Below are positions 15,628-50,309 of a stretch of DNA of 64,000 nucleotides, one piece after another. The stretch is taken from contig JAPXLB010000003.1 of assembly GCA_033809755.1 (NCBI GenBank), forward strand, positions 68,961-132,960, given 5' to 3'. The position numbers and the translations under genes are program-made. Within the stretch, counting starts at the first letter, position 1. Each line of letters opens with the position of its first letter. The notes beneath the pieces were generated by a model. It did not search any database and was not told the origin of the DNA. It saw nothing but the letters and a program-made list of their open reading frames with translations. Source of the DNA: Lentimicrobiaceae bacterium (GTDB taxonomy: Bacteria > Bacteroidota > Bacteroidia > Bacteroidales > UBA4417).

Positions 15628-15654
15628 CAACTTTTTCATAACTTTAATGTTTTA

Positions 15655-15687
15655 AACAAAAAAACTGCTGAAATGGCAGTTTTTTTG
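15655..15687. terminator. Bidirectional intrinsic terminator between the tRNA and the paralogue array
   Basis: A-tract, stem AACTGC/GCAGTT with a 7-nt loop, then a T-tract (aaaaaaactgctgaaatggcagttttttt). Confidence 0.7.
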
Positions 15688-15708
15688 TTGTATAATGGCT
15701 TTTTAATT

Positions 15709-16963: not shown

Positions 16964-17379
16964 ATTTTAAATTTGTTAGTGTAACCTACGTTTGCTATTT
17001 TACCTAACAAAGTCGTTTCTTCTACTTTGCCGGTTGGTGTTATTCTCGCTTTTATACCATTACAGATTTTAAATACTTTCTCTGTATTATATGGTGTTTT
17101 TACTCCGTCTATACCTTTACGGGTTTCGTGTGGTTTTAATATTTCGGGTTGGCAGTTTCCGTCTTCTTTTTTCGTATATCCTATACCGGAATAATTATTT
17201 TCTACAATTTCACCGGATTGAAAAAGATAAGCGTATAAAGCAATGATTATAATCAATACAGGTATAATCATAAACGAATACATAAAAACCTTACTTCTAT
17301 TTAGAACTACTATATTACAAAGCCATAATAGACCTAAAATAAATGCTATTGAGTAATTATCAATGTGTTTTAATTTCAT
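16960..17379 (-). CDS. Two-TM protein of unknown family, paralogue 1 of 4
   Basis: MKLKHIDNY start, two TM helices and the conserved C-terminal domain. Confidence 0.8.
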   Translation of the reverse strand: MKLKHIDNYSIAFILGLLWLCNIVVLNRSKVFMYSFMIIPVLIIIIALYAYLFQSGEIVENNYSGIGYTKKEDGNCQPEILKPHETRKGIDGVKTPYNTEKVFKICNGIKARITPTGKVEETTLLGKIANVGYTNKFKI

Positions 17380-32890: not shown

Positions 32891-32990
32891 ATTAGCTATT
32901 GGCTTTTGGCTGTTAGCTATTGGCAATTAACAATTAGCAATTAGTAATGAACAATTAGTAATTATTGTTTAGCCCGAAGTTTCGGTATTA
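32891..32990. repeat. Heptamer block (TTAGC/TTGGC type, CAATTAG type) plus CCGAAGTTTCGG hairpin
   Basis: attagctattggcttttggctgttagctattggc aattaacaattagcaattagtaatgaacaattag ... cccgaagtttcgg. Confidence 0.8.
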
Positions 32991-33010: not shown

Positions 33011-33302
33011 GGTTCTATTCTTTTTTATATGTTCTTTTGTCTGTGACACAAAAGAACCAAAAAGTCAAGGCTGACATTTCTTTTCTGAATTGCGTTCTCA
33101 TAAATCCTGAGTTCGTGCGGGTGATCTCCGAGCAAGCTCGGAGCTTCCCGCCCTCACTTGGGATTTATTTCGAACTCCATTCAGAAGAAATGTATGCCAT
33201 CCTTTTAAAGCTAAATTTTTGGCTATTGCTTTTCCTTACCGTGACAAATTATTTAAATGAAAAGAAGGAAGTGTATTTATTGCTAAAAAGTTTAACAAAG
33301 TT
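33011..33302 (+). repeat. Dispersed structured repeat R1, copy a
   Basis: Alignable by eye with 55707-55996. It has a 10-bp hairpin (33031-33057) and a ~120-nt rod (33074-33193) of four nested stems. G.U wobbles favour the + strand. Confidence 0.8.
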
Positions 33303-33346
33303 ACTGACTTACGCTTGTTTTACAGAAGCGAGCGAGATACAATCTC

Positions 33347-33562
33347 ACTCATTTAAAATTCTTTTTACGCAGAATATGTATAAAAGAAACGTTAAAAATT
33401 TCTGAATCCCTGTAAGAAATTTAGTTTCTTTTATACGGTTTTTATTGCCGAAAGGCAATAAAAAATTCCTTGTAAAAAGTGTCCTTTCTTTTGTTTCGTT
33501 TTCTTTGGACAAGCAAAGAAAATGAAAGAAACAAAATTGAAACCATAAAAGCTTATCGATTA
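33347..33562. repeat. Dispersed structured repeat R2, copy a
   Basis: Near-identical by eye to 45123-45337. Three perfect hairpins: 13+8 bp; TATTGCC-GAAA-GGCAATA; 9+9 bp. Confidence 0.8.
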
Positions 33563-33592
33563 CAAATAAAAGCATGATTGAGTTTGCTGGTG

Positions 33593-33645
33593 TCTATTGG
33601 CTGTTAGCCGTTGGCTAATGGCTAAAAGCCACGCAACACGTAAAC
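33593..33645. repeat. Heptamer block (TTGGC/TTAGC, GGCTAA) plus CACGCAACACGTAAAC
   Basis: tctattggctgttagccgttggctaatggctaaaagccacgcaacacgtaaac. Confidence 0.75.
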
Positions 33646-34514: not shown

Positions 34515-36044
34515 ATGAATCAAACCATATTAATTTTAGACTTCGGTTCGCAATACACTCAGCTTATAGCACGCAGAATACGTGAGCTCAGCGTTTACAG
34601 CGAAATTCATCCGTACAACAAAATACCTGAATTGGGTAGCAATATAAAAGGTATTATCCTGTCGGGAAGTCCTTTTTCAGTCTTAGATGACGATGCTCCG
34701 ACTATAGATATAAATTCCTTAAGAAATCGTTATCCAATTTTAGGTATTTGCTACGGAGCTCAGTATTTATCTCATAATTTGGGTGGAAAAGTCGAAAAAT
34801 CGACTGTAAGAGAGTACGGCAGAGCCAATTTGAGTTATATCGACAAGAATAGCGTTTTATTCAAAAACGTTGAGCTTAACTCGCAAGTTTGGATGAGCCA
34901 TGCCGATACTATAACACAGCTACCCGACAATTTTAACGTAATTGCAAGCACTGCCGATGTTAAGGTTGCAGCTTATAAAATTAACAACGAAAACACCTAC
35001 GGATTACAGTTTCACCCCGAAGTGTATCACAGTACAGACGGAAAAACAATTTTGAAAAATTTTGTTTTCGATGTTTGCGGATGCGAACAAAGTTGGACAC
35101 CTAAGTCGTACATTTCGGAAATGGTAAGCAAAATTAAAAATACCGTAGGAGACCAAAATGTCATTCTTGGCTTATCCGGTGGAGTTGATAGCACTGTTTG
35201 TGCCGTATTGCTGCACAAAGCCATTGGCGAGCAATTGCACTGTATTTTTATCGACAACGGTTTGCTTCGTAAAAATGAGTTCAGTTCTGTATTAGACTCT
35301 TACAAAGGCATGGGCTTGAACGTAAAAGGCGTTGATGCCGGAAACAAATTTTTAACAGCTTTAAAAGGCATAACAGACCCCGAAGCTAAGCGTAAAGCAA
35401 TAGGCAGGACTTTTATAGAAGTTTTCGACGAAGAAGCTAAAAAAATCGACAATGCCAATTGGTTAGCACAAGGCACAATTTATCCCGATGTTATTGAATC
35501 GGTTTCGGTTAAGGGACCTTCGGTAAGTATTAAAAGTCATCATAATGTCGGCGGTTTGCCCGACTATATGAAACTCAAATTAGTTGAGCCACTCAGAATG
35601 CTTTTTAAAGATGAAGTCAGAAAAATCGGTACCGAACTTAACATTGACCCGAATATTCTTAATCGACACCCTTTCCCAGGTCCCGGCTTGGGTATCAGAA
35701 TATTGGGAGATATTACAGCTGATAAAGTTAAAATCATACAAGAAGCCGATTATATTTTTATCGACCTTTTGAAAAAACGCGGACTATACGAAAAAGTGTG
35801 GCAAGCCGCTGCTATATTGTTACCAATTAAAAGCGTTGGAGTTATGGGAGACGAACGCACCTACGAAAACGTTGTTGCACTTCGTGCAGTAACTTCCACC
35901 GATGGCATGACCGCCGATTGGTATCACCTACCCTACGATTTTCTAACCGATGTCAGCAATCTGATAATAAACAATGTTAAGGGAATAAACAGAGTTGTTT
36001 ACGATATAAGCTCCAAACCACCTGCTACTATTGAGTGGGAGTAG
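34515..36044 (+). CDS. guaA: GMP synthase (glutamine-hydrolysing)
   Basis: 509 aa. [36 protein letters not shown] and a C-terminal PPATIEWE. Confidence 0.95.
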
Positions 36045-36080
36045 GTTATGGTGGTTGGTGAATGGTGGTGGTTGATGAGT
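36045..36080. repeat. G/T-rich heptamer module (GGTGGTT/GGTGAAT type) at the left edge of the island
   Basis: ggttatggtggttggtgaatggtggtggttgatgag starts directly after the guaA stop. Confidence 0.75.
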
Positions 36081-36485
36081 TTCCAGATACAAGAGTCTGT
36101 CCCGTATAGGTAACTTTTTGCTTTTGTTGCAATTGAATGTATTCTTAATAATACAAAACATGGACATAATTGTATTGTTGAAAATACAATTTTCGCACGA
36201 ATTAAACATTTATTCCGCCTAGATGATCATAAACAAAATTCCTAGAACTTTTCAAATTCTTGAAGTTTTAGGAATTTCACTTTGGGAATGTGGACGGTTT
36301 AGCGGCTGAAGAACAATGGTCATATGTATGAAACGTTGGGGATTGCGGGTTTCGTTTCTGTCTGCCGTTGCAAAAGTTGATGCGGAGCAGAACACTTCAT
36401 GTAACCAATTAACCCCATTGTTTTATACATGATGTTGTATGTTCGGCATTTTTTATCATTTATTCATACAAATATTTATTGTGCT

Positions 36486-37022
36486 CTACCAATTCAGTGC
36501 CTTGGTATACAGGCTCTCATTCTCTTTAAAATCATTGGGAAAGATTTTATAATCAATTCCATAATCTATTAGATATTGAAAAGAGCAATTGGTCTTATTT
36601 TTCTTTGAGAAATGATACAAGTTCCATAAATATCTTTTTGAAGAACCAGAAACACAAATTCTATTTATTTCATATTGGAATATTTTAAATTCAGTTGTTG
36701 ATATGTTTCCTGTTAATTTTAAATAGCAAATATAATCTATATAAGAAAACAACTTGTCAATTGAAACTTCCAGTTCACTACCATGAAATAAATCTCCGTA
36801 CCAATTTTGATTATAGTCAACTACATACATTGTTTTTGATAAATTCTGGTCAAATCTAAGTTTTTCCAGAATTTGATTGATAAATTCTGCACGTTTAGTT
36901 TTCAAACTTTTATGCCATTGCCAATAAACGAAAACACCACCAACGGCGATAAATATCAATGAAACTATTGTAAGCCAATTCTCAATAGTTAATTTTACAC
37001 ATAAGGTCATATTGTCATTCAT
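36486..37022 (-). CDS. Hypothetical membrane-anchored protein (island gene 5)
   Basis: 178 aa. One N-terminal TM helix (WLTIVSLIFIAVGGVFVYW). I recognised no motif. Confidence 0.55.
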   Translation of the reverse strand: MNDNMTLCVKLTIENWLTIVSLIFIAVGGVFVYWQWHKSLKTKRAEFINQILEKLRFDQNLSKTMYVVDYNQNWYGDLFHGSELEVSIDKLFSYIDYICYLKLTGNISTTEFKIFQYEINRICVSGSSKRYLWNLYHFSKKNKTNCSFQYLIDYGIDYKIFPNDFKENESLYTKALNW

Positions 37023-37083
37023 TATTTTCTACTATTTTCTTTAAGTTTAATTTGTTTCAAATCATCGGTTTTCTTTATGCTGA

Positions 37084-37171
37084 CACACAACGTCTTATAT
37101 ACGTAACAAATGTACAACATTCTTAAAAAAAGCAACTCATAATGTTATAAAAAACATATTTATTTAATCAA
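37084..37171 (-). promoter_or_regulatory. Island upstream module, copy C (short)
   Basis: gacacacaacgtcttATATACGTAACAAATGTACAACATTC...CATATTTATTTAATCAA aligns with the gene-proximal part of copies A and B. It lies 61-150 nt upstream of the 178-aa gene. Confidence 0.5.
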
Positions 37172-37445
37172 TAATAAAAATTAATGATACTTAAATGTTT
37201 GGCTCAACAGCAATATTAACTGCCAAATGCGATAAGGGAAGGAAAAGTTTCGTGTATAATAATTATGCTAACGGCTACGTATGTGGAAAGCAGACGATTG
37301 CGAGTTTAAACTAATAAAATCTTTACAATTTTTAAATGAGCTATAACCTCTGAATAACCTACTGAAAGTGCATTTTGTTATATCGCATGTTAAGTGTTAT
37401 TTATATTTTTAATTTATTGTCAATTGACAGTTTAAAATTTATGTA

Positions 37446-38129
37446 TTACATCATATCCTCAATATATTCTTTAAGAATTGAATTATTTATACTTTCTGTT
37501 AGCTCATGTGCTATTTGTCGTAATGATGTATATGCAGGATTATTCTCAAATAAAACGATTTGTCCGTTTACAATTAACTTTAATGAGTCATTTTGTTTAA
37601 ATTGATAATATTGGTTATTTATTTTAATGTCAAAATGATTTCCCCCGTCTTGTTCTGCTATTGAAAGAATTAATTTTTCTCTTGTCAAAATAAAACCGCT
37701 AGGATCATCGTAAATAACCTGATTATACCAATTTTCAAAATCTAATTTGTCGTTTTGCTGCCATTCGTTTTTATAAAATAATGGTTTAAAGGTGTACTTA
37801 TTTACATCATTAATCCCATTAATTTCTTTTATCACTAATCCCATATAAATTGGCATATAAATAACGGTGCAATTTCTCATCCCTTTAATAATAAAATTTG
37901 ACATTCCTCCCGATTTAGTAGATGAATCCCAATACGAAATAGAGTCTTTTTTCTCTAAGAGTTTAAGAGCTGATACATCACGGTTTTTATCTTTTAATAA
38001 ATTTCTTAAACTAACAGATATTCGTTTTATTTCGGTTATGTCTCCTTTATCATATTCTATACAAGATTTTTTGAGAAAGTAGTATTGTTCCCTAAAATTG
38101 TCTATTATTGCTAACTTGTCTCTTTTCAT
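37446..38129 (-). CDS. Hypothetical protein (island gene 4)
   Basis: 227-aa ORF, soluble. I recognised no motif. Confidence 0.55.
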   Translation of the reverse strand: MKRDKLAIIDNFREQYYFLKKSCIEYDKGDITEIKRISVSLRNLLKDKNRDVSALKLLEKKDSISYWDSSTKSGGMSNFIIKGMRNCTVIYMPIYMGLVIKEINGINDVNKYTFKPLFYKNEWQQNDKLDFENWYNQVIYDDPSGFILTREKLILSIAEQDGGNHFDIKINNQYYQFKQNDSLKLIVNGQIVLFENNPAYTSLRQIAHELTESINNSILKEYIEDMM

Positions 38130-38176: not shown

Positions 38177-38312
38177 CACATAACGAAAACTGGTAGCCAT
38201 AATTGCCGGATTTACAGCACTTTCGCATCAATTTAGCACTTCGGTTCGTTAAAAGCACCAAAGTTTAAGTTGGCACAAAAGCCGGCAATTATCGGCTAAC
38301 ATATGTTATGTG
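38177..38312 (-). repeat. 136-nt imperfect inverted repeat E1, integron attC-like
   Basis: Termini CACATAAC (38177-38184) and GTTATGTG (38305-38312). Inner stem ATAATTGCCGG/CCGGCAATTAT plus TAGCC/GGCTA, with one bulged base (38293). Central region of ~70 nt. It starts 22 nt after the upstream gene's stop and ends 47 nt before the next ATG. Confidence 0.5.
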
Positions 38313-38334: not shown

Positions 38335-39375
38335 TTAAAACGCTTCATTTATATTTGAAATTCCTGCTTCTAATAATAAAGTTGCAAATTGAATTCCATT
38401 TACTAATTGAACTTTGTAATTTTTTGCCAACTCTTCACAATCAATTGAGTAACTATCAGCCGAAGAAATCACCCACGCAATTTTTGAAAAACCGTCATCC
38501 ATACTGCTATCTTTATATTCTTTGTATTCATTGATTTGTTCCAAAGCCCAAGAATTTGTTTCACCGTCGTGAAATTTTGCCTGAACATAAATTATTGTTT
38601 TTATTGGTTCAAAAGTTGCAATTATATCTGCATCTCCGCTTTTATCACTTTCGTTTTTAGCGGGAATATATACTTTTGATGCTCCAATTTTTCTAAAATA
38701 CCATTGAATTAATAACTCAAATTTGTCTGGGTTTAATTGACTTTTAATAATATCTAATACTTCGTTTTTTGCAGTTTCGATAATTAAACTATATAAATTT
38801 ATTGGTTTTTTGTTGTTATATGCTGTTATTGCAGTTTTTATACTTTGCTCCAAATCTGATATACAAGCATTTGTATTCTGTATTTTCATTCTTGCAGTCA
38901 AAGCATTATCTGCGTAATCATATCGAGAAATATTTGTTGCTATCGGCTTAACTCGTCTAAAAAACCCTAAATCAATATGATTTTCATTGTCAGGTTTAAT
39001 TCGATATAAACAATTATTGTCATCTTTGACAATAGAATTATCCCACCAGTCTTTTAGATTTTTAACATCTAATTCTACACTTGTAATTATTTCGTCATCA
39101 ATAATTTCATATATGGAAAATACTCCTGAACCTGGCACTAAAATATAATCTCCTTTCTCCATTTCGGAAATAAATCGCCACAAGTTATATCTTGTTCTTG
39201 GTCTATTTCCCCAAGTTTTATCAAAATAATTTTCAAACTCGTCCCAATTTCCACTACATTTTTCAATAAATTGAGGTTCTGAAAAATCCGAATATCCAAT
39301 TGATATTAATCCTTTATCCAATAATGGATATGCTAATTCAGCATGATGAGAAATCCTATGAAGCCAATAATTCAT
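38335..39375 (-). CDS. Mrr-type (PD-(D/E)xK) restriction endonuclease domain with an unassigned N-terminal domain (island gene 3)
   Basis: The C-terminal FELLIQWYFRKIGA...SGDADIIATF...IIYVQAKF matches the Mrr catalytic core (D...QxK). The ~180-aa N-terminal domain (MNYWLHRIS...KGDYILVPGSGVFSIYEI) may be a PUA/EVE-like reader. Confidence 0.7.
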   Translation of the reverse strand: MNYWLHRISHHAELAYPLLDKGLISIGYSDFSEPQFIEKCSGNWDEFENYFDKTWGNRPRTRYNLWRFISEMEKGDYILVPGSGVFSIYEIIDDEIITSVELDVKNLKDWWDNSIVKDDNNCLYRIKPDNENHIDLGFFRRVKPIATNISRYDYADNALTARMKIQNTNACISDLEQSIKTAITAYNNKKPINLYSLIIETAKNEVLDIIKSQLNPDKFELLIQWYFRKIGASKVYIPAKNESDKSGDADIIATFEPIKTIIYVQAKFHDGETNSWALEQINEYKEYKDSSMDDGFSKIAWVISSADSYSIDCEELAKNYKVQLVNGIQFATLLLEAGISNINEAF

Positions 39376-39411: not shown

Positions 39412-39547
39412 CACATAACAGTTTTCAGCTATACGCAGGCAGGACTTTTTACCACTAAACTTCCTAAATAGTGCTGAACTTTAAATTTACTACTTTCCTG
39501 TCCTACGGAGCACGAAACTCCTACTAGCGTATAGCTGATGTTATGCC
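39412..39547 (-). repeat. 136-nt imperfect inverted repeat E2, integron attC-like
   Basis: Termini CACATAAC (39412-39419) and GTTATGCC (39540-39547). 12-bp stem TCAGCTATACGC/GCGTATAGCTGA (39425-39436/39527-39538) with asymmetric spacers (5 nt versus 1 nt). Branch hairpin GGAG-cacgaaa-CTCC. It ends 36 nt before the next ATG. Confidence 0.5.
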
Positions 39548-39610: not shown

Positions 39611-42600
39611 TTAATATTCCAATCTGTTTCTTTCTGCTTCTTCGTCCATTCGTTTTGCATCTGCTAAATAACCTTGCTGCATTCGTTTAAATATCTCAGC
39701 AACATTAGGGTATTTATTTTTAAAACCATTTGATAATTTCTCAAAGTAGGCGGCTTTTCCTCTTTCAATATCTCCACCATCAAAAGCACCTCTAGTGGAC
39801 ATACCTCGTTTATTAAACATGGCAGATGAATAACCTCCTTTCAATTCATCTGTGTTGATTTCTTCAATAATTTGAAATATTTTTTCTTCTGGCCAAAAAT
39901 TACTGTTTTCAGGATACTGTGCTAAAATTTTACCAATCTCATTGTCGGCAGCTTCTAGTCTACTTACATTTTCTGCTAAAAATCTTGTTTTTGTAACCCA
40001 ATTTTTCAATATCGTTTCATCTATAAAATTATCCTCTTTCATACCTGGAATTTTTTTCCATGAATGAAGCAGATGGTAGGCTTGTTTTGCTCTATTTTGG
40101 ATAGCTTCGTCAGAAATACCTTCTCGTTCTTTTTCCAATAATGTTTTGTCTTTTGGAATGTAAATACACTTTAAAACCTCAATAAAAAAATCAGGGTTGT
40201 TTGCCAATTCTTCTTCTAAAATCTTAGGGCTTCTCCTTGCCCCGTATGAATCTAATATTGGAAGATAAAGCCACTCCAAATGAATAAGGGTTGATTTTTC
40301 AATATCTGTACGCTTGTCAAGTTCTTCAAAAATTCGTTCAATTTCATAACCTATGAAACGTGGCGTTTCACTTGCTTCCTCTGTCGCTGCTTTTTTCAAC
40401 ATCTCTGAAAGCAGATTACTTGAAATTACGTTTGCTAAATGTGAAGCTATATCTATTGCAGAAAAGAATCTTTTGTATTTCAAAAGCATTTCAATTCCAA
40501 TTGTTTTTTCTTCATCGGTAATATGATAAAAATGTGGGTTGATGTTTTGCCAATATTCATTTTGTATTTCTTCATCTAATGAAGCTACATAATTCCATAA
40601 TTGTTGATTTTGATTTAGTGGAATTAGAACATTAGAAAGTGCTTTATTGCTAAACTTCTTTTCTTGTAATTCTTTGAATAATGATTTTATCCAATCAAAG
40701 TTTTCAATGATTGATTTACGATAGATAAAGTTGTGAGCAAAACCAATAAGATTTTTATCGTCATACAAACATTCACAAACTGTAATAACTTCTTCTTTAT
40801 TTGTAATTATGCCAGCTAAAGCACCACCTAAAAGCCAAAACTCTTTAACTTGTTTTCGTAATTCTAAGGTTGCGTTTAAGCCTAATTCTTGAAGAAAAAC
40901 AGTCACTGCTGTTTTTCTTGCTTCATCAATACGCTTTTGTTGTTGATCGTACAGTTCACCTGACTTATTAAGTTCGTATTTAAAGCCTTCTGGAAACTTA
41001 GGCCAATGTTCATTGAAAAGCCAAATGTATTTGTGGATGGTGTCTGTTGGTTGAAGTTTGTTATACAAATTTTCCAACCGTACCAACTCGGATTCTGGTA
41101 AAGCCCAATCGGTATCAGGATGAGACCTGTGATGATTTAAAATTCCCCTTATTGTTTCCCAAGTTGAAAATTTTTCCTGTTTGATATTTGGGTAAACTTC
41201 ATCAGCCCAATCTAAAACTCTTTTTCTGTCTTTAGGAGAAAGATTGGGTATTTCTTTTATGAGTTGAGAAAATTTTTCTTCATCATTATCAAAAAGGTTT
41301 ATAAGCATTTCTATTACTGATGAATGCGTATTCCATATTTCTTTATATGTGTATGTAAGGTTAGTGTTCTTGTCAAACATTCGCCAACGCATTTTATGTG
41401 TAGGATGAGCAATCCCGTGATGGTCAGGAAGCATTCTTATTAAAAGATTCCAACCCAATTCTTTTTCTTTTTCAGTAACGAATTTTAGAATTTCCATTCT
41501 TTCATCAAAAGATGCAAGAGTTTGAAAATGCCACGGTTTAAAAATTTCTGTAACGCTATTCAATGGTCTGTTTGACAAACTACCTCCTGGGTCAAGTCTT
41601 GAAAGTTTTAGCAGAATCAAACTTACATCTCTTAAATATTCTGGCAACCAAGCTAAATTTTCAAGTGCCCACAACAATCCTGTGTGATGACTTGTTTTGT
41701 GCAAAAAACCATCTTCCTCTTTGAACATATCCATTATTTCGGGCTGTTTTTTTGCTAAAGAATTTTTTACAGCTTTGAGAAAACTTTCAGGTGACGCTTC
41801 TGAAATAAGTGGCAATTCGTTGTCAACGGAAATCCAGATTTCTCCACTTGCGTTATAAAGTAAATCAAAAATAATATTATCAACCCAGCTTTGAGGATTA
41901 TCAAGATTGGGGATTTTCACATCATTTAATAGTCCAATTAAAATTAAAGATTGTATTAGCCCTTCCCTAGACCAATTAGAGTATTTGTGTTTTTTGTTGA
42001 AATAAGCCGCAAAACTGTTTTTTTCTTCGGGTTCAATGACTGGATTTCCATTCTTAAACGCCATTGAAAAACATTCTTTAATATTTTGAAAATCTTTTGT
42101 TGTAAGTTGATAGGAAAGATTTGTCCATAAATCTAATGGCGAAGTTAATCGCCAAGTTTTTCCGATTTGTATGATTGGTGATTCTTCAAAATTTCTCCAT
42201 TTGTTAAGTGTTACCAAATAGTCGGAATACTTTTGTTCAGAAAGTTTTTCAATTAGTTCAATATCGCCAACAAAAGTTTCATTCCATCTCCCTAATAAAA
42301 GTGCGGGTATTATCTCACGAATGTTTTCTTTTTCAATCCATTTTGCTTTGTAATAAGGAAAGCCTAGTAGTTTTTTAAGAATAGTAATATTTCGCCCTGA
42401 TTCTTTAGATAATTTTTCTGCATATTCTCTTGATATACCGCTTTCAATTAACGATTTTATTTGCCCGTCCCTATCTATTGTTGGCAGTGTGATAATTTCT
42501 TGATTGAAATTGTCATCTGCACCGAGAGGAACTAATACGTGGTTTCCTTTTGATACAGCTAAGTAAAGAGGTTGCGCTTCATCAAATCTTGGAATGAGAT

Positions 42601-43408
42601 TTAAAGTAGAGGATACATTGTTTCTTACTATTCCACGAAAATTACCTTCTGTATCTATTATTAGTGCTTTAGAAAAAAATCTGTCAGCCTCTTCAGGAGG
42701 AAACGTTTTTGCTGATGCAATAATGAAAGCAATTGCTTCATTTTTTGTAGAAGCTTTAATTCCTTTAATTGTAGGTTCTCCTTGTAATGCTGACAACAAT
42801 AAGTCCTTTTCATATTCTCTGCCTGCAATTATACTTTCAGGTGAAAGAATTAATCCTTTTGGCCCGATTGACCATTCTTCCCAAAATTCATCAGCAGTCA
42901 TTATTCCATCAAATGGATATGTTCCAACTCCATCTTGCGAAGCAAACCAACGTGAAACTGATTGTGCATTATCAAGCCATTGTTCTAAGTCCATTGAATC
43001 ATATACTTTAACATCTTTCCAATGATTTTCGGCTTTTTTTGCTGCAATCCATTCGTCTTTTTTTGTCCAAAGTCTGGGTGTTACAAATATAAAAACAGAA
43101 TCGCTAGGTGTAAAACCTATTGGATTCTTTTTTCTTTTATCATAATCATCATCAGCTTTTCCTTTACAATCAGACGAAGTACCAAACTCCCACAAAGAAG
43201 TTCCTTGAGGTACATAAGCCGTTTCGGTTTCACAAATGACAATTCCATCCCAACCTCCGATATAGGTCGCACTACCTGAAGGAAGATTTGCTTTTGTGCT
43301 TGCAGGCGTTGTTGCTCTTACTAATCTTGAAATTAAATAAGGCAAAACAGCCTTTGAAAAGGTTGTGTCTGCCCATCTTTCGAGATTATTTCTGGTAACA
43401 AGTTTCAT
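39611..43408 (-). CDS. 1265-aa protein of unknown function (island gene 2)
   Basis: Long uninterrupted ORF with no Walker A or helicase motif. The ~170-aa N-terminal globular region (GGWDGIV...SLWEFGTSSDCKGK) is followed by more than 1000 aa that look helical-repeat-like. Antisense ORFs inside it were rejected. Confidence 0.8.
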   Translation of the reverse strand: MKLVTRNNLERWADTTFSKAVLPYLISRLVRATTPASTKANLPSGSATYIGGWDGIVICETETAYVPQGTSLWEFGTSSDCKGKADDDYDKRKKNPIGFTPSDSVFIFVTPRLWTKKDEWIAAKKAENHWKDVKVYDSMDLEQWLDNAQSVSRWFASQDGVGTYPFDGIMTADEFWEEWSIGPKGLILSPESIIAGREYEKDLLLSALQGEPTIKGIKASTKNEAIAFIIASAKTFPPEEADRFFSKALIIDTEGNFRGIVRNNVSSTLNLIPRFDEAQPLYLAVSKGNHVLVPLGADDNFNQEIITLPTIDRDGQIKSLIESGISREYAEKLSKESGRNITILKKLLGFPYYKAKWIEKENIREIIPALLLGRWNETFVGDIELIEKLSEQKYSDYLVTLNKWRNFEESPIIQIGKTWRLTSPLDLWTNLSYQLTTKDFQNIKECFSMAFKNGNPVIEPEEKNSFAAYFNKKHKYSNWSREGLIQSLILIGLLNDVKIPNLDNPQSWVDNIIFDLLYNASGEIWISVDNELPLISEASPESFLKAVKNSLAKKQPEIMDMFKEEDGFLHKTSHHTGLLWALENLAWLPEYLRDVSLILLKLSRLDPGGSLSNRPLNSVTEIFKPWHFQTLASFDERMEILKFVTEKEKELGWNLLIRMLPDHHGIAHPTHKMRWRMFDKNTNLTYTYKEIWNTHSSVIEMLINLFDNDEEKFSQLIKEIPNLSPKDRKRVLDWADEVYPNIKQEKFSTWETIRGILNHHRSHPDTDWALPESELVRLENLYNKLQPTDTIHKYIWLFNEHWPKFPEGFKYELNKSGELYDQQQKRIDEARKTAVTVFLQELGLNATLELRKQVKEFWLLGGALAGIITNKEEVITVCECLYDDKNLIGFAHNFIYRKSIIENFDWIKSLFKELQEKKFSNKALSNVLIPLNQNQQLWNYVASLDEEIQNEYWQNINPHFYHITDEEKTIGIEMLLKYKRFFSAIDIASHLANVISSNLLSEMLKKAATEEASETPRFIGYEIERIFEELDKRTDIEKSTLIHLEWLYLPILDSYGARRSPKILEEELANNPDFFIEVLKCIYIPKDKTLLEKEREGISDEAIQNRAKQAYHLLHSWKKIPGMKEDNFIDETILKNWVTKTRFLAENVSRLEAADNEIGKILAQYPENSNFWPEEKIFQIIEEINTDELKGGYSSAMFNKRGMSTRGAFDGGDIERGKAAYFEKLSNGFKNKYPNVAEIFKRMQQGYLADAKRMDEEAERNRLEY

Positions 43409-43475
43409 ATTTTAATTGCGATTTCTTTTGTTTCTCTTTATGCTTCTTGTCGGTGGTATCTTCTTTTAGAGTGAG

Positions 43476-43672
43476 GCATAACGCCCCATATACGTAACAA
43501 ATGTACAACATTCGTACATATAAAACACAATTTGAATAACAAAAATACATTTATTTATCCAACAAACAAATTTTATAACACCAAATATTATTTTTGTACC
43601 TAATGGCAAAATCCGACAAGTAAAAGAAGCGTTTTATAAATAAGCTTTAAGGGTATATCTCTTTTGAAGTAT
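43476..43672 (-). promoter_or_regulatory. Island upstream module, copy A
   Basis: Aligns by eye with 44878-45048 over ~170 nt. On the - strand it contains TATTTTTG (a TAnnTTTG-type box) and the ATGTAC-gaatgtt-GTACAT hairpin. On the + strand it has TATTTTTG followed by the mini-ORF ATGGCAAAATCCGACAAGTAA. Confidence 0.55.
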
Positions 43673-43767
43673 AAGCCTGCTAACAGACGACAATACGCAA
43701 CGTAAGGATTTTGCGGTGACGAACCAATTATCAGTAACAAACCTTGCTGGCTAGCAATGCGTTTAAC

Positions 43768-44814
43768 CTACCAATAACACTCCCATGGTGTATAACAGCA
43801 CCTTATGCCCAGCTTTTTTATTATCCTTCCGTTATAATAAGTCAAATAATTTTCGTCTGCAATTGATTTGTTCTTGATTTTCCAATAATTTTTGAGTCTA
43901 TTTCCAAGTGAAGAAACGGCAACTTTACATCGAATATTACTCATTTCCTTTCCCCAATGAGTTCCATGATGTGGTAATATCACCATATCCCAATATGAAT
44001 TGTTTGAAACAGATAAATTATATTCCAATGCATTGTCTATCTCATTTGCCTCCAAATCACCTAAAAACAATAGCTGATTATTACAATATGCTAATGATAT
44101 TCTATTTGCAATTCCTCTTAATTCATCATTTAAATTTTTAATATGCTTCAATCTTTCATTACGCTGTTCAGAATCAATTAAATTTATTGTTCCTTTCTCT
44201 GTTTGCTCCGACTCAAAATTAAATTCTTCTTCTTTATCTTGATAGAAAGAATTATCTAATGTCTTATATATTTTTTGTAAAATGTCATCTTTCTGTAATT
44301 CTTCATTAAAAAGCTTTATTACTTTTTCTACCGATTCGGTAAAGGAATTGTCTATCTCTCTTGGAGGCCAAATTACTTGAAATGATTTCTGACCCAAATT
44401 AATAAAATCACCCTGGGAAACAGGAATAACATTGAACCTTCTATTATAGCTGATTTTTGAGATTAAATTAATAAAATCATACTCCATACTTCCTGAATCA
44501 TTACCCAACAAGTAAAAATTAACCGTCTGGAAAGCTTTTAGCAATGCAGACCTATTACTAAATTTTGGAAGTCTAGGGAAATAGACGGTATCTATATGGG
44601 CACACATCCCCGAATGTGCAATATTCACTAAACCACTATAATGGTCAGAATGGAAATGTGACAACACGAACGAAAATGGAAAGGAATGACAAAATCTATA
44701 TAATAATCCCTTATTCACGTCGTGCTGGGAACCAAAGTCAGTTACAAGTCTTTCATTTTTTAATCTAAAATCAACAAACAGACCATCTCCAATGTCATTT
44801 ATTATTACAATCAT
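43768..44814 (-). CDS. Metallo-beta-lactamase-fold hydrolase, ComEC-like subtype (island gene 1)
   Basis: HxHxDH motif SHFHSDHYSG, then FLGDLE and ILPHHGTHWG, which resembles the ComEC/Rec2 MBL domain. There are no membrane segments. Confidence 0.75.
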   Translation of the reverse strand: MIVIINDIGDGLFVDFRLKNERLVTDFGSQHDVNKGLLYRFCHSFPFSFVLSHFHSDHYSGLVNIAHSGMCAHIDTVYFPRLPKFSNRSALLKAFQTVNFYLLGNDSGSMEYDFINLISKISYNRRFNVIPVSQGDFINLGQKSFQVIWPPREIDNSFTESVEKVIKLFNEELQKDDILQKIYKTLDNSFYQDKEEEFNFESEQTEKGTINLIDSEQRNERLKHIKNLNDELRGIANRISLAYCNNQLLFLGDLEANEIDNALEYNLSVSNNSYWDMVILPHHGTHWGKEMSNIRCKVAVSSLGNRLKNYWKIKNKSIADENYLTYYNGRIIKKLGIRCCYTPWECYW

Positions 44815-44860
44815 AATGCAATTTTTAATATTTTATTTTCAAACTTTCTTTTCTTAATTA

Positions 44861-45048
44861 CTTACAACAATTATTTTCACGTATCAAATGTACAACATTT
44901 TTATAAAAACAAGTAAAAACGCAAATTTATTTATCCAACAAACAAATCAAATAACACCAAATGTTATTTTTGTAGTTAATGGCAAAATCCGACAAGAAAA
45001 AGAAACGTTTTATAAATAAGCTTTAAGGGTATATCTCTTTTGGAATAT
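44861..45048 (-). promoter_or_regulatory. Island upstream module, copy B
   Basis: See copy A. The + strand mini-ORF is intact here (44979-45026, MAKSDKKKKRFINKL). Confidence 0.55.
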
Positions 45049-45049
45049 T

Positions 45050-45117
45050 GTTAGCTATTGGGCATTGGCTATTGGCTATTAGCCATTGGCTATTGGCTGA
45101 TGCGTGTTGCGGGTTAG
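45050..45117. repeat. G/T-rich heptamer block (ATTGGCT type) plus GCGTGTTGCGGGTTAG
   Basis: gttagctattgggcattggctattggctattagccattggctattggctgatgcgtgttgcgggttag. Confidence 0.8.
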
Positions 45118-45122
45118 ATTTT

Positions 45123-45337
45123 ACTCATTTAAAATCCTTTTTACGCAGAATATGTATAAAAGAAACGTTAAAAATTTCTGAATCCCTGTAAGAAATTTAG
45201 TTTCTTTTATACGGTTTTTATTGCCATAGGGCAATAAAAAATTCCTTGTAAAAAGTGTCTTTTCTTTTGTTTCGTTTTCTTTGGACAAGCAAAGAAAATG
45301 AAAAAAACAAAATTGAAACCGTAAAAGTTTATTGATT
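45123..45337. repeat. Dispersed structured repeat R2, copy b
   Basis: Near-identical by eye to 33347-33562. The tetraloop hairpin has loop ATAG where copy a has GAAA. Confidence 0.8.
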
Positions 45338-45454
45338 GGAAAAAAGCCTAATTTGGATAACTGTTAGCTGGTATGAGGTGCGGGTTAGTTCTGAGTCGGG
45401 AGTATTGAGTTGAAACATTTCGGTCGCTGAGCGCCGAAGCCCAATGTATTATCT

Positions 45455-45519: not shown

Positions 45520-45543
45520 ATAAAACTCGTAACTAACACCGAC

Positions 45544-45620
45544 CAATCACCAATCACCAATCACCAATCACCAATCACCAATCACCAATCACCACTCACC
45601 ACTCACCACTCACCACCACC
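45544..45620. repeat. C/A-rich heptamer array: (CAATCAC) about 7 times, then (CACTCAC) 3 times
   Basis: caatcaccaatcaccaatcacc...actcaccactcaccactcaccaccaccc. It abuts the 3' end of osmC, and heptamer-like sequence (caccaatcac) continues a few codons into the gene. Confidence 0.85.
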
Positions 45621-45622
45621 CA

Positions 45623-46039
45623 CTATTCACCAATCACTATCTCATGCGTAATTTTCATTACCTGCTTGTAAACATGATTTACCCCACAATACTTTTCTAA
45701 CGATAAGTTTACGGCTTTTTCAACTTTTTCCTTATCAATATTATCGCCTTTCAGCTTGTATATGATGTGCATAGCAGTGTAGTGCTTTGGATGTTCTTCG
45801 GTCATTTCGGCTTCAATAACTACGTCAAATTCGTCGAATTGTACTTTCATTTTGTTTAAAATAGATACAACGTCCATTCCTGTACATCCAGCCAATGCTG
45901 TTATCATCAACGGTTTTGGAAGTACACCGCTCTCTTCTCCGCCACTTTCAACCTTCGCATCCATAATTACATCGTGATTGTTAACTTTCGATAGGAATTT
46001 CATCTTTCCTTGCCATTTAGTTTCAATAGTCTGTTTCAT
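45623..46039 (-). CDS. OsmC/Ohr-family peroxiredoxin-like protein
   Basis: PKPLMITALAGCTGMDVVSIL and LEKYCGV. I prefer the start MKQTIE (46039) over the hydrophobic 19-codon extension. Confidence 0.8.
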   Translation of the reverse strand: MKQTIETKWQGKMKFLSKVNNHDVIMDAKVESGGEESGVLPKPLMITALAGCTGMDVVSILNKMKVQFDEFDVVIEAEMTEEHPKHYTAMHIIYKLKGDNIDKEKVEKAVNLSLEKYCGVNHVYKQVMKITHEIVIGE

Positions 46040-46197
46040 AATTAGTAATATTAGTATGTTAGTACAAAAGTATAAAATTGTTTTGCAAAAGTACAAAATA
46101 TCTATATATCTATATGTTTTTATATTTAGATTTGAAACTTTTTAAAATTTTTCCAATTATCAAACTTTGCAGGTTATAAAAATGTTATATATTTGCA

Positions 46198-46355
46198 AGC
46201 GAAAATTGGTTCTACAAAAGATTAAAAGGGAATGCCGTGAGAATCGGCAACAGTACCCGCTGCTGTGAGTTTTAAAAGCATTTTTATTAAGCCACTGTAT
46301 TTTTATGGGAAGGCAAAAATGTACGAAACAAGTCAGAAGACCTACCATTTTCAAA
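46198..46355 (+). promoter_or_regulatory. Cobalamin (B12) riboswitch
   Basis: AAGGGAATGCCGTGAGAATCGGCA, CCCGCTGCTGTGA, GCCACTG, GGGAAGGC and the B12 box AGTCAGAAGACCTACC (46331-46346). P1 is aaaattggt/accatttt. Promoter TTTG 46166-46169 and TATATTTG 46188-46195. Confidence 0.85.
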
Positions 46356-46487
46356 TTACATAATACGACTTCCGGGATTAGAGGTCTGAGATGTGTCGAT
46401 ATTTCAGTATATTACCTCCATCCATTTCGTATTTTGTTATAAATAGATATTGAAGTATTTATTAATGAACAATTAAAATATAACAAA

Positions 46488-49400
46488 ATGAGAAAATTTA
46501 ATCTGTTGCTATTAGCATTAATTGCTATTATTCAAACAAGTGTAGCTCAAACAAAATTGAGCGGAGAGTACATAATTAGCCAAAACACAGCACATAATCC
46601 TGATTATACAAGTTTTCAGGCAGCGATTGACGATGCTACAACCAAAGGTGTACAAGGTATAGTTACCTTTAAGGTTATGCCTGGCACTTATGAAGAGTTT
46701 GTATCTATTACGACTATTAACGACCTAAGTGCTGAAAATCAGATTGTTTTTAAAGGTATAGCTCCCGACAACCAACAAGTTGTTTTAACCGGAAATGCAG
46801 GATATTTAGAAAAACCAATAATTAAATTTTCGGCGGTAAGGTACATTACTTTTAAAAACATGAAAATAGTTACCACATCAAGTAATTATGGGAATTTAGT
46901 TGTGTTTGAAAATAAAGTTAATAACTTGACCTTCGACAGTATATATTTTCATGGTATTGATGTTACTGCTAATACATTTAACAACGACAAACATATTATT
47001 TTCGATAATAGCAAAAGTGCCGATTACACCGATTCGGATTTACATTTTTTAAATTCGCAATTTGTAAATGGTAACATGGCTTTTTACTTACAAGGCAATA
47101 ACGCTATAACTCCGCCCGACAGCAACTTAGTAATTGAAAACTGCACGTTTACAAACCAGTACACAAAAACTATTTATGCCACTTATCAAAAAAACGCTTC
47201 CATCAAAAATAATAAAATCAGCAACAACGAAGATATAAAAAACGGATTTCAAGCTATTGATTTGTTTCGGGTTTACGACAATAGCATAATTGAAAACAAT
47301 ATAATCAACATTGATTTTTCGACAAAAGACGGAACAGGTATTGAAGTTCGTCCTGCTATTGGCTCTGCCACAGAACCTGTTATTATAAGAAATAATATGG
47401 TTAAAATTACTTCCAATTCCAACCTTAATTATGCTTTCAAACTTTCTAACAGTAGTAGCGAAAATGTAATTCTGGCTAACAATACTGCACTTATGCAAGG
47501 CACAGGAAGCGGTGCTGTTGTTTACATTGATGCCGTCATCCCAAACTTTAAAATGTATAATAATCTGTTTGTAAGCGAAAATAGTGGATATATTGTCAGG
47601 CATCAGAAAACGGATATAAGTAATTTTACTTCCAATTTTAACAGATGTCTTTTCAACGGTAACTATTACGGCAGAATCGGCTCAAACGAATATGCTACTT
47701 TACAGGAATGGCAAACGGCTTCCGGTAACGATAATAACACAGAAATTATAAGTACAAATCCTTTTATTTCGAATACCAATCTGCATATAAGTAATAGCAC
47801 AAACCTAACTGTTGCAAATCCTTTGAGCTACGTAACTCACGATATCGACAACGAACTGCGTTCGACAACGACACCGTGTGCAGGTGCTGACGAAATCGTT
47901 TCGGGTGGAAATCTTCCACCATACGTTGCAAACCCTATCAGCGACGTTATTTTTGAAAATGCAAACGACAGCACAATTATTTCGTTAAACAATACTTTTG
48001 CCGACCCCGACGACCCAGATGAGGATATTGTAATAAGTATTGCGTCGAATTCCAATCCGCAATTGGTTGAAGCTACGTTGCTTGCAGGAAACAGAGATTT
48101 GAAAGTCAAACGAATAAGTCCTGATGCAGGCACTTCAACTATAGTTTTATCGGCAAATAGCAATGGACAAACTGTTGAAACTTCTTTTAACGTAATATGC
48201 AATGTTCCGGCAGTTGCTCCCGTTATTGCCAATCAGGTTGACCCTGTGAATTTTACCACGTATCCCGAAACTAAAACCATTAATCTTACCAATGCTTTTG
48301 CAGTTCCGGGCAACCCCAATGCCAACATGCAACTGACAATTCAAAGTTCTACTAACACTCATGTTCAGTCTTCTCTTTCTGCAAATATATTGACCTTACA
48401 GAGAATCAATCCTACAGCTTTCACTAATCACGAAGTTGTAATACGTTGTACGTACAACAGCTTATTTGTTGATATGACAATACTAATGTCGGGCACTGAA
48501 GCTACTGCAGCACATGGTACAGCAACTTTTGAAGATATTACACTGAACAGTAATGGCACATGGACGCCGCCACAAACAGGTGATAATGAAATGATTAGCG
48601 ACACATGGAGCTTTTATAACCATTATCATAATTCGTATTGGGGTGGATTTACCGCTTCAAACAGGACAGATACGACATTAAGCGGAATGGCTGCTCAATA
48701 TACTGCTATTGCAGGCGAAGGCGTAAACGAATCAGAGCAATATGCAGTCGGCTTTACAATGGGTTATCCTGCTGATGTAAAACCCGTTGATAATAATCCG
48801 GACGTTGTTTCGGGCTGCTACGTAACCAACAATTTATGGGCATACAGAGCAATTTTGGAAGGTGATGGTTATGGTCCTGCTTTCGGTGGAAACTCCGGAA
48901 ATGACCCCGACTACTTCAGAGTTTGGGCTGTTGGAAAAAGAGAAAATAACACATATACCGACACATTGTACTACTACCTTGCCGACTACCGTTCGCCAAA
49001 CAACTCGGAAGATTATGTTGTTAACACTTGGGAATGGTTTGACCTTTCTACTATGGGAATTATAAAATCCATACGCTTTGGGTTGCAATCGTCAAGGAGT
49101 AATGCGTGGGGAATGACTACACCTGCTTATTTTTGCATGGACGACTTCAACGGCATCCCTCCCACTACACCAAACCAACCGCCTTACGTTGCTAACAGCA
49201 TCGACGATGTGCTATTTACAACTTATCCTTGTTACGATACATTAGACTTAACTAATACCTTTGCCGACCCCGACGATCCAAGCGACAGTATTGTTTTAAG
49301 CGTTGGTGGTAATACTAATCCGCAACTTGTTCAGGCAACTATTGATGAAAAAACGCTGTATTTGGAAAGACTTTCAAGCGAAAATGATACGGTTCTCATT

Positions 49401-50309
49401 ACCATAAATGCCGAAAGCAATGGACAATACGCCAACACGTCGTTTAATGTGTTTTGTACCGATCCGCAAAACCTTCCGCCTTATGTGTTGAATCCTATTC
49501 CTGATGTTACTTTTGAGTACTATCCCGACTACGATACATTGGATTTATCGAACACATTTGCCGACCCTGACGACCCAAGCGACAGTATTGTGTTAAGCGT
49601 TACAAATAATACAAATCCTGAGCTTGTTCAAACCATTCTGGAAGATAAAACATTGTATTTAGAACGACTTAGTGCCGAAGTAGGCGACGTGGTTATCACC
49701 ATAAATGCCAATAGTGCCGGACAAGAAGTAGCAACCGTATTTACAGTTCATTGCTTGCCTATACCCAATCCTGAGCCGTACTTGGCAAATCCGATTGAGC
49801 ACATTTACATATACGATTATCCTTTCGATACTACGTTCAGCCTGATTGGAACCGTCTCCGACCCTGATGTTTGCGACTCTCTGATAGTATATACAGTCAT
49901 AAATAACAGCTCGCCTAACGATATTGAAGCCGTGATTGACAACAATAGCAATATGACTATTTCCAGATTAAATCCCAATCATGCCGAAGTTGTTGTAACC
50001 GTCAGAGCTACCAGCAACGACCAATTTATCGATTTCGAGATTGATATCACAAACGTATTGTATGAAAACGTGTATTCGTATGATAATTCAACAGCAATAT
50101 ATCCAAATCCTACTTCAAAATACATTAAAATTGAGAGCTCGAAAGATTTTTCTGGATATATGATATTAAATTCTAATGGAAATGTTATTAAGAACAGCGT
50201 TCTTGATAATAAAATAATAGATGTCAGTAATTTAATGCCTGGAAATTACATACTTATAATTATTGATAACAATAGAAAACATACAACACATAAGTTTATC
50301 AAAATATAA
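46488..50309 (+). CDS. 1273-aa secreted multidomain protein with a T9SS C-terminal sorting domain; B12-riboswitch controlled
   Basis: Signal peptide, then a beta-helix-like N-terminal third, then five ~95-aa repeats (PPYVANPI...NTFADPDDP). A central ~210-aa domain (ATFEDITL..YWGGFTASN..PAYFCMDDF, nt ~48520-49150) follows. The C-terminal IYPNPTSKYIKIE...LMPGNYILII is a Por-type secretion tail. Confidence 0.8.
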   Translation: MRKFNLLLLALIAIIQTSVAQTKLSGEYIISQNTAHNPDYTSFQAAIDDATTKGVQGIVTFKVMPGTYEEFVSITTINDLSAENQIVFKGIAPDNQQVVLTGNAGYLEKPIIKFSAVRYITFKNMKIVTTSSNYGNLVVFENKVNNLTFDSIYFHGIDVTANTFNNDKHIIFDNSKSADYTDSDLHFLNSQFVNGNMAFYLQGNNAITPPDSNLVIENCTFTNQYTKTIYATYQKNASIKNNKISNNEDIKNGFQAIDLFRVYDNSIIENNIINIDFSTKDGTGIEVRPAIGSATEPVIIRNNMVKITSNSNLNYAFKLSNSSSENVILANNTALMQGTGSGAVVYIDAVIPNFKMYNNLFVSENSGYIVRHQKTDISNFTSNFNRCLFNGNYYGRIGSNEYATLQEWQTASGNDNNTEIISTNPFISNTNLHISNSTNLTVANPLSYVTHDIDNELRSTTTPCAGADEIVSGGNLPPYVANPISDVIFENANDSTIISLNNTFADPDDPDEDIVISIASNSNPQLVEATLLAGNRDLKVKRISPDAGTSTIVLSANSNGQTVETSFNVICNVPAVAPVIANQVDPVNFTTYPETKTINLTNAFAVPGNPNANMQLTIQSSTNTHVQSSLSANILTLQRINPTAFTNHEVVIRCTYNSLFVDMTILMSGTEATAAHGTATFEDITLNSNGTWTPPQTGDNEMISDTWSFYNHYHNSYWGGFTASNRTDTTLSGMAAQYTAIAGEGVNESEQYAVGFTMGYPADVKPVDNNPDVVSGCYVTNNLWAYRAILEGDGYGPAFGGNSGNDPDYFRVWAVGKRENNTYTDTLYYYLADYRSPNNSEDYVVNTWEWFDLSTMGIIKSIRFGLQSSRSNAWGMTTPAYFCMDDFNGIPPTTPNQPPYVANSIDDVLFTTYPCYDTLDLTNTFADPDDPSDSIVLSVGGNTNPQLVQATIDEKTLYLERLSSENDTVLITINAESNGQYANTSFNVFCTDPQNLPPYVLNPIPDVTFEYYPDYDTLDLSNTFADPDDPSDSIVLSVTNNTNPELVQTILEDKTLYLERLSAEVGDVVITINANSAGQEVATVFTVHCLPIPNPEPYLANPIEHIYIYDYPFDTTFSLIGTVSDPDVCDSLIVYTVINNSSPNDIEAVIDNNSNMTISRLNPNHAEVVVTVRATSNDQFIDFEIDITNVLYENVYSYDNSTAIYPNPTSKYIKIESSKDFSGYMILNSNGNVIKNSVLDNKIIDVSNLMPGNYILIIIDNNRKHTTHKFIKI

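Follow-up and report, generated by a model that had tools for sequence, protein, structure and literature searches.

A repeated module with a predicted promoter and a junction box in a putative integron-type cassette array of a Lentimicrobiaceae bacterium

The island and its genes

We analyzed a stretch of 64,000 nucleotides (the window) on contig JAPXLB010000003.1 of a Lentimicrobiaceae bacterium, a member of the Bacteroidales. It contains an island of 9 kb with a GC content of 27-34%, compared with 35-40% in the flanks. The island lies between guaA (34515-36044, plus strand) and an OsmC-family gene (45623-46039, minus strand). It carries a repeated intergenic module. Copies A, B and C of this module each stand before a gene, and a probable fourth copy, D, follows the last gene. 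An earlier note on this DNA had placed three unrelated genes behind the module. There are indeed three groups headed by a module with its predicted promoter; the cassettes, however, are five in all. These five open reading frames (ORFs) are on the minus strand, and each cassette begins with a GTTRTRN box, the junction box. The junction boxes, the attC-like hairpins described below and the fourth copy are features that the earlier note did not contain. The five ORFs are the following.

43768-44814, minus strand: cassette ORF 1, MBL-fold protein of 348 aa, weakly matching Avs1a and the 6A-MBL protein
39611-43408, minus strand: cassette ORF 2, 1265-aa protein without a family match; leader from GTTATGCC (43482)
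38335-39375, minus strand: cassette ORF 3, 346-aa protein with an Mrr_cat restriction-endonuclease domain; leader from GTTATGTG (39419)
37446-38129, minus strand: cassette ORF 4, 227-aa protein with no assigned function; leader from GTTATGTG (38184)
36486-37022, minus strand: cassette ORF 5, 178-aa protein with no assigned function; leader from GTTGTGTG (37091)

The family scan covered 50 of the 52 window ORFs of at least 100 aa. The two left out (16538-16963 and 16960-17379) belong to a run of four small tandem ORFs. Outside the island, every scanned ORF with a family match is a housekeeping gene. Inside the island, the scan found no regulator gene. The sequence of the 178-aa protein, read by eye, presents an N-terminal hydrophobic stretch. 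With an Mrr-like nuclease and an Avs1a-like MBL protein, the cargo of the island looks like that of an anti-phage or restriction defence type.

The 1265-aa protein has no match in Pfam, PADLOC, NCBIfam or the PDB. Yet homologues at 70-90% identity occur in many Bacteroidota families, spread over Flavobacteriia, Sphingobacteriia, Cytophagia, Chitinophagia and Bacteroidia. In the closest relatives, its gene is the fourth of an operon of HTH, N6 methylase and BsuBI/PstI endonuclease genes, 12 nt behind the BsuBI/PstI-type restriction gene. It looks like an uncharacterised, widely transferred defence gene linked to restriction.

Copies of the module

The module copies and the core that they share are located as follows.

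44862-45055, minus strand: module B, which heads the array and lies upstream of the MBL-fold cassette; proximal junction box GTTGTAA at 44862-44868
43476-43684, minus strand: module A, upstream of the 1265-aa cassette, between GTTAGC (43679-43684) and the junction box GTTATGC (43476-43482)
43488-43513, minus strand: invariant core in A; the identical 26-mer is in C; in B, 21 nt correspond (44879-44899), one of them mismatched
37085-37272, minus strand: module C, diverged, upstream of the 178-aa cassette, from GTTAGC (37267-37272) to the junction box GTTGTGT (37085-37091)
36100-36283, minus strand: copy D (probable), after the last cassette and adjoining guaA; no gene behind it, -7 box and junction box lost

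The repeat of ~170-190 bp reported in the earlier note is real. Modules A (43549-43672) and B (44925-45048) show 92% identity across 124 nt. Their local alignment distal to the core has 154 columns, 86% identity and z = 55 against shuffles. The 21-nt core ACGTAWCAAATGTACAACATT is present in A, B and C, that is, three times in 64 kb against 0.00 expected. Modules A (43488-43513) and C (37097-37122) have the exact 26-mer ATATACGTAACAAATGTACAACATTC in common. Around it, C (37074-37125) and A (43465-43516) are 81% identical over 52 nt. Distal to this match, the similarity of C is weak (z 3.2-3.8).

A profile built from the three copies finds only A, B and C in the window (E 1e-49 to 3e-59), and the next match has E 0.25. 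The earlier note had allowed for a generic repeat unrelated to gene starts. This does not hold within the window, where the copies are confined to the island. Copy D (~36100-36283) is degenerate and collinear with the others. Its score was reached by 1/1000 shuffles in the comparison with A, and by 4/1000 in that with B. We consider it a probable rather than a certain fourth copy because some control regions reach about 3%. It retains GTTACCTATACGGG, whose counterpart in A is GTTACGTATATGGGG.

The sequences of A, B and C are present in independent assemblies. The repeats are therefore no assembly artefact. Short-read contigs break inside the stretch that is identical in A and B, as expected of a repeat.

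On the gene strand, the core of A reads AATGTTGTACATTTGTTACGTATAT and contains GTT boxes 1 and 2. In the core, AATGTTGTACATTTGTTACGTAT, two GTT boxes are 11 nt apart, and the junction box is 16-17 nt further. A and C keep both spacings as direct repeats. In B, box 2 is GATACGT. The junction box follows the core after 9 nt in A (GTTATGCC), 10 nt in B (GTTGTAAG) and 9 nt in C (GTTGTGT).

At the distal side, A and C are immediately preceded by GTTAGCA, which is putatively the core of the 3' element before them. The GTTAGC beside module A (43679-43684) is a putative R' of the preceding site. Both modules stop at the G/TT of the next cassette and fill cassette-sized slots of about 180-200 nt. The distal end of B, GCTAAC (45050-45055), abuts heptamer repeats of the host. 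On either strand, the copies fold no better than their shuffles (z -0.5 to -1.2), with unpaired ends. The modules are therefore not attC hairpins.

Exact-pattern scans for the core gave only zero or chance matches in 185,579 species genomes, the JGI metagenomes and IMG/VR. BLAST of the module against plasmids and phages gave nothing beyond chance. The module was likewise not found in the loci around relatives of osmC.

Cassette boundaries in relatives

Homologues of the genes behind the modules do not carry the module. None of the MBL homologues at 78, 64 and 49% identity is preceded by it. The homologues of the 1265-aa gene (87-90%) lack it, and their DNA similarity is limited to the stretch from ATG to stop. 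The homologues of the 178-aa gene at 91 and 89% identity are also without it. These close homologues rule out, for all three genes, that the module is cargo moving with its genes. By this comparison, the module is local to the array and not carried with the genes.

The region of the 178-aa gene gives the sharpest boundary. It is 89% identical to two contigs, L203 and L204, and the homology starts at 37092 and 37096, i.e., at CGTTGTG. This start, CGTTGTGTG, is 70 nt before the ATG of the 178-aa gene and exactly at the proximal edge of module C. In L203, the homology runs 160 nt beyond the stop codon. The Mrr-like and 227-aa genes, which have no module, likewise start with GTTATGTG. The homology of the 1265-aa and MBL genes is confined to about ATG to stop and is therefore uninformative on the junction box. 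For a comparison with an empty site, the Logan contigs all end at the heptamer array after osmC, and the OsmC relatives are at most 62% identical and not syntenic.

Both contigs have features of their own. L204 (945-2410) is an unrelated metagenomic contig that also bears a small cassette array. GTTATGT/GTTATGA boxes lie 35-70 nt before its DUF6686, TIR/SEFIR and 178-aa genes, and the array begins directly after the stop codon of a PepSY_TM host gene. In L203, a group II intron (1-786; reverse transcriptase/maturase ORF; match to RF00029 domain V-VI, 63.7 bits) stops 8 nt short of the 178-aa cassette's 5' junction. Its orientation is that of the cassette gene, and known IIC-attC introns have the opposite one. 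An origin of the module from a group II intron was rejected, as the window has no intron signal and the L203 intron is co-oriented, unlike IIC-attC introns.

attC-like sites and the own-end test

Sites of the attC type are imperfect palindromes of 57-141 bp on the 3' side of an ORF, with an RYYYAAC inverse core and a GTTRRRY core that form the hairpin base, and the Vibrio cholerae repeat (VCR) has 133 bp (PMC5027507; PMC12901181). In the island, a candidate 3' element lies behind each ORF. Rfam has no attC family. Our calls depend on boxes, length, folding and the own-end test described below.

39413-39546, minus strand: attC-like hairpin after the 1265-aa ORF, GCATAAC...GTTATGT; a called 51-aa ORF is inside
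38178-38311, minus strand: attC-like hairpin after the Mrr-like ORF, ACATAAC...GTTATGT; 73% identical to the hairpin at 39413-39546
36308-36440, minus strand: attC-like site after the 178-aa ORF, ATACAAC...GTTCTTC, 131 nt; mostly conserved (to 36326) with the L203 copy
37266-37395, minus strand: putative degenerate attC after the 227-aa ORF, ACTTAAC...GTTAGCA, 128 nt; no fold
43679-43767, minus strand: 3' element of the MBL cassette, GTTAAAC...GTTAGC, 88 nt; the weakest candidate site

The pattern CATAAC-N120-GTTATG occurs twice in the window against 0.19 expected, each time with exactly 132 nt. As single-stranded DNA, the site at 39413-39546 folds with z -5.0 (-5.2 and -4.8 in a second run). 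That at 38178-38311 folds with z -4.4 (-5.2 in the second run). In both cases, 0/200 shuffles were as stable. The two hairpins have paired ends and an asymmetric bulge, and there are no other such elements in the window. In their mutual alignment, the arms are out of register. A sequence profile of the two found no further copies in 1.95 Mb of fetched DNA.

The site at 36308-36440 folds moderately (z -2.1 and -2.9) with paired ends. An inverse core ACAC(A/T)TAACAT is common to four sites, 128-132 nt long. Over 80 nt, the 3' element of the 227-aa cassette has 74% similarity with the L203 site that follows the 178-aa gene. The MBL element shares ~50 nt with the contig of an MBL homologue. An integron cassette array would show at least two such sites, clustered in one orientation and each behind an ORF. 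The cluster here comprises three folded and two putative sites, all on the minus strand, one for each of the five ORFs within 9 kb. A loose motif, YAACAT-N-GTTRYR without the hairpin requirement, was discarded as uninformative, since it occurs at chance density everywhere.

If a cassette came from a circle, the bases right after G/TT, at its own 5' end, should pair better with its inverse core than those of the array neighbour. The matches out of 12 with the own end were 9 for the 1265-aa cassette, 11 for the Mrr-like, 10 for the 227-aa, 9 for the 178-aa and 11 for the TIR cassette of L204. With the neighbour, they were 7, 9, 5, 6 and 7, respectively. Including the MBL cassette (6 vs 3), the own end was better in 6/6 cassettes. 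On these counts, the complementarity is the footprint of a former circle joined at G/TT. It is not predicted if the hairpins are palindromic repeats or miniature inverted-repeat transposable elements (MITEs).

The predicted promoter and the opposite strand

The -7 consensus of Bacteroides, TAnnTTTG, has been tested by mutation (PMC4747536). In the window it is enriched, with 157 occurrences vs 103 expected, and it lies 10-86 nt before most first genes. Before island genes, it is present only within the modules and is absent before the Mrr-like and 227-aa cassettes. The boxes of the modules are these.

43498-43505, minus strand: -7 box TACATTTG in A, agreeing with TAnnTTTG
44885-44892, minus strand: the same box in B
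37107-37114, minus strand: the same box in C

All three copies have TACATTTG inside the invariant core, at a distance of 16-17 nt from the downstream junction G and 71-90 nt from the ATG. The leaders downstream of it are specific to each cassette. The shared promoter-leader cassette of the earlier note is thus right as to a conserved -7 box in the core, while the box is not the one proposed (TATTTTTG) and the leader is not shared. On the gene strand, TATTTTTG is a feature of A only; at the equivalent place B has TAAATTTG, and C has none.

Transcription would start ~6-11 nt before the junction. Module B would drive the MBL cassette. Module A would drive the 1265-aa cassette and then, by read-through, the Mrr-like and 227-aa cassettes, and module C the 178-aa cassette. 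The role of the module may be that of Pc, the promoter of an integron array, or of the promoter-bearing gene-less cassettes of Vibrio superintegrons. A structured RNA or riboswitch in the leaders was rejected, as these gave no Rfam match at E <= 1 and no folding signal (z -0.3 to +1.8).

The opposite strand had been credited with a second TATTTTTG followed by a mini-ORF. It is there in A and B and missing from C, which has no ATG.

44965-44972, plus strand: opposite-strand TATTTTTG box of B
44979-45026, plus strand: 15-codon ORF of B
43589-43596, plus strand: counterpart of the box in A
43603-43623, plus strand: 6-codon ORF of A, stopped early

Because the mini-ORF is not conserved, it is probably not functional as a peptide; the early stop in A and its absence from C led us to reject a small protein. 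Its 19-mer match to five viral contigs is a chance match, because all of them represent one high-GC phage gene start. Folding of opposite-strand transcripts gave no structure signal.

Interpretation of the array and the module

On balance, we lean towards reading the island as an integron-type cassette array without an integrase in the window, i.e., clustered attC sites with no integron integrase (CALIN). The module would then be a repeated attI/Pc-like expression unit for promoterless cassettes. This reading builds on directly observed repeats, junction boxes, hairpins, own-end complementarity, the shared 178-aa cassette and the positions of the module and the -7 box. The invariant core, in which GTT boxes are directly repeated (ATGTTGTAC and TTGTTACGT, followed by GTTRTR of the junction), may be a past or present double-stranded target like attI. 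A tyrosine recombinase encoded elsewhere would have inserted cassettes at this core. Duplication of the unit inside the array may have produced the several copies; D, which is followed by no cassette, would have decayed. The earlier note also raised a common insertion mechanism like that of recombinase-associated arrays. This came closer, in that the anatomy is of integron type and the module ends at the junction box. A model of tandem integration (attL/attR) was rejected; in the comparison of A, B and C, the pattern of shared flanks is opposite to its prediction.

Several observations weigh against an integron-type array. Among the 50 scanned ORFs of the window, none matches a recombinase or integrase family, and no intI lies beside the modules. 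The basis is three to four module copies in one lineage. The attI analogy is loose, since B has a broken GTT box 2 and the junction is not preceded by an inverted L box. The promoter is predicted from its match to the consensus, and the -33 TTG, found at 17-22 nt in the modules, falls in unaligned columns. Two of the five 3' elements, those after the MBL and 227-aa ORFs, are unfolded, and their R' boxes GTTAGCA resemble the TTAGCAA-type heptamers of the host. With 73% identity between the two strong hairpins, a palindromic repeat family is still conceivable. Finally, the 5' junction of the MBL cassette is placed by position, as homologous DNA is shared only from about the ATG.

The module might instead be a duplicated promoter or operator that puts unrelated defence genes under one regulator. 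It would have no role in recombination, and its coincidence with the junctions would be a by-product of gene pasting. The -7 box and an overlapping dyad, AATGT-N3-ACATT, are kept in all copies that head a gene, while the gene-less D has lost the box; and the core of A and C is 100% conserved despite diverged flanks. We find this account unlikely all the same. The dyad is not enriched in the window (11 vs 7.5 expected) and is upstream of no other window gene. The GTT boxes that bound A and C on both sides are left unexplained. So are the 124 nt, more than 35 nt upstream of the -7 box, that remain 92% identical while the -33 region varies. For the co-regulation by a single factor that the earlier note proposed, with palindromes as a possible operator, we find no support. 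Besides the dyad, only TGTACA is in all copies; TACGTA is limited to A and C, and ATGTAC-n7-GTACAT to A. The island encodes no regulator, and an SOS/LexA-type operator was rejected, since the known SOS boxes of Bacteroidetes (PMC8565304) are absent. A third account takes the array for a Bacteroidales rAID-like one. Its XerD-family recombinase would be outside the window or lost, and the module would be its repeated intergenic sequence. The Bacteroidales host, the co-oriented low-GC genes and the repeated intergenic sequences agree with it, and rAID-1 itself has been described as reminiscent of integrons (10.1101/471110; PMC12247911). We consider it quite improbable, however, because the defining recombinase is absent from all 64 kb (among the ORFs scanned) and the genes are restriction- or defence-like rather than immunity genes, one of them with 1265 codons against the usual 100-300.

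The slots filled by A and C, bounded by G/TT boxes, would also suit a gene-less cassette made up of little else than a long attC of the host, which would recombine in folded single-stranded form, as the VCR of Vibrio do. The distal edges have R''-like boxes (GCTAAC in B, GCATAAT in C, GCTAAAC in D), and GCTAAC can pair with GTTAGC, the first bases of A and C. The absent folding and the unpaired ends rule out the module as an attC hairpin of this kind. Its 180-200 nt exceed the attC range of 57-141 bp (PMC5027507), and the modules contain no sequence, hence no own-end inverse core, that would complement their own 5' ends. This leaves such a host attC with very little probability. We give still less to a MITE-like or insertion sequence-derived mobile promoter, scattered in the genome by independent insertions. 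The genome is rich in other intergenic repeats, such as the 228-nt repeat and the heptamer arrays described below, and short-read contigs break inside the module. Nevertheless, neither terminal inverted repeats nor target-site duplications, the hallmarks of a MITE, were seen. All copies are in one 9-kb island, in one orientation and each directly before a cassette junction, and none is in the other 55 kb of the window or in the scanned collections.

Other repeats and elements in the window

A 228-nt direct repeat is present at 33342-33569 and 45118-45345 (94% identical). It has two internal hairpins, namely TTTTTATTGCC...GGCAATAAAAA and a 23-nt dyad. One copy precedes a peptidase S51 gene, the second is located between module B and osmC, and the pair encloses pepE, guaA and the island. 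The repeat probably represents a separate family of intergenic repeats.

Tandem arrays of 7-nt units are located at 32891-32964, 33580-33629, 36046-36080, 45054-45098 and 45542-45640. Their types are TTAGCAA, GCTATTG, ACCAATC and GGTGGTT, and they abut gene ends (guaA stop, osmC stop, EamA start). In eight samples, every short-read contig terminates at the array that follows osmC. The heptamer unit is similar to GTTAGCA, the box found at the distal edges of A and C.

Three further elements are outside the island. A cobalamin riboswitch (46190-46363, plus strand, 113 bits) lies upstream of the gene for a 1273-aa DUF4465 protein with a type IX secretion system (T9SS) sorting domain (46488-50309), divergent from osmC. 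At 15554-17379, four ORFs of 135-142 aa on the minus strand, overlapping in tandem, come after tRNA-Arg(TCT). Two of them were scanned, without a Pfam match, and the four may be a paralogous array of small genes beside a tRNA. The GC-richer intergenic stretch 33037-33200, flanked by the EamA gene and the 228-nt repeat, has a long dyad CTGAATTGCGTTC...GAACTCCATTCAGAAG around a GAGCAAGCTCGGAGC hairpin and no Rfam match.

Relation to known systems and meaning

Gene-less promoter cassettes of Vibrionaceae superintegrons (PMC11014356) resemble the module in function. They are units without an ORF between coding cassettes of a chromosomal array, and they bear a sense-strand promoter that would activate promoterless cassettes far from Pc. 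They differ in ending in a normal folded attC, whereas the module is unfolded. Here, moreover, one unit is repeated 3-4 times and bears a predicted TAnnTTTG promoter of the Bacteroidota type.

The attI site with its Pc/P2 promoters, and attI-type sites inside arrays (PMC12901181), are comparable in other respects. They are non-palindromic and end in a GTT crossover box that joins the first cassette. They have GTT direct repeats upstream (DR1, DR2 and the R box in attI1) and a promoter reading across the junction, which is putative here. Unlike attI, the module has no adjacent intI and is present several times in the same array. An L box is not recognised in it, B has a mutated box 2, and the sequence has no similarity to known attI sites.

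CALINs and sedentary chromosomal integrons with anti-phage cassettes (PMC9024848; 10.1101/2024.07.02.601686) share several traits with the island: attC-like sites are clustered with no integrase, the cassettes are co-oriented and low in GC, and the cargo is of a defence type. The two mutually similar sites of ~132 nt compare with the 133-bp VCR. The differences are the Bacteroidales host, the mere five cassettes, a cassette ORF of 1265 codons and two degenerate sites, and our assignment follows the anatomy. The rAID-1 arrays (10.1101/471110) belong to the same order and are co-oriented, low in GC, rich in repetitive intergenic sequences and called integron-like. They are defined by a XerD-family recombinase at the head and by immunity genes (10.1101/471110; PMC12247911), neither of which was found here. 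With respect to their co-oriented short genes of less than 41% GC, the island is co-oriented with 27-34% GC, and one gene has 1265 codons.

IntegronFinder 2.0 recovered essentially no integrons in Bacteroidetes (PMC9024848). Bacteroidota are also among the clades without integrons in a study of defence cassettes in chromosomal integrons (10.1101/2024.07.02.601686). What appears to be new here is a cassette array of integron anatomy in Bacteroidales with a repeated, non-hairpin unit of predicted promoter and junction. A bolder view, which we hold only tentatively and regard as doubtful, is that Bacteroidota run an integron-like cassette system of their own. It would have GTTRTG junctions, ~130-nt CATAAC...GTTATG hairpins and defence cargo crossing families. 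Its repeated double-stranded attI/Pc-like platforms would each capture and drive their own cassettes, with the recombinase acting in trans.

Integrons are a model system for the capture and on-demand expression of genes. A known problem of these systems is that cassettes distant from Pc are silent. In the island, which belongs to a Bacteroidales genome, the anatomy of the cassettes can be read down to the base pair, and the cargo is defence-like. Its repeated module suggests a possible answer to the silence of distant cassettes, that is, a promoter and junction unit repeated inside the array. If this is true, the module would be a handle for detecting such arrays in Bacteroidota metagenomes. 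It would also offer a compact native promoter and landing pad for engineering, and a test case for the spread of attI-type sites within arrays.

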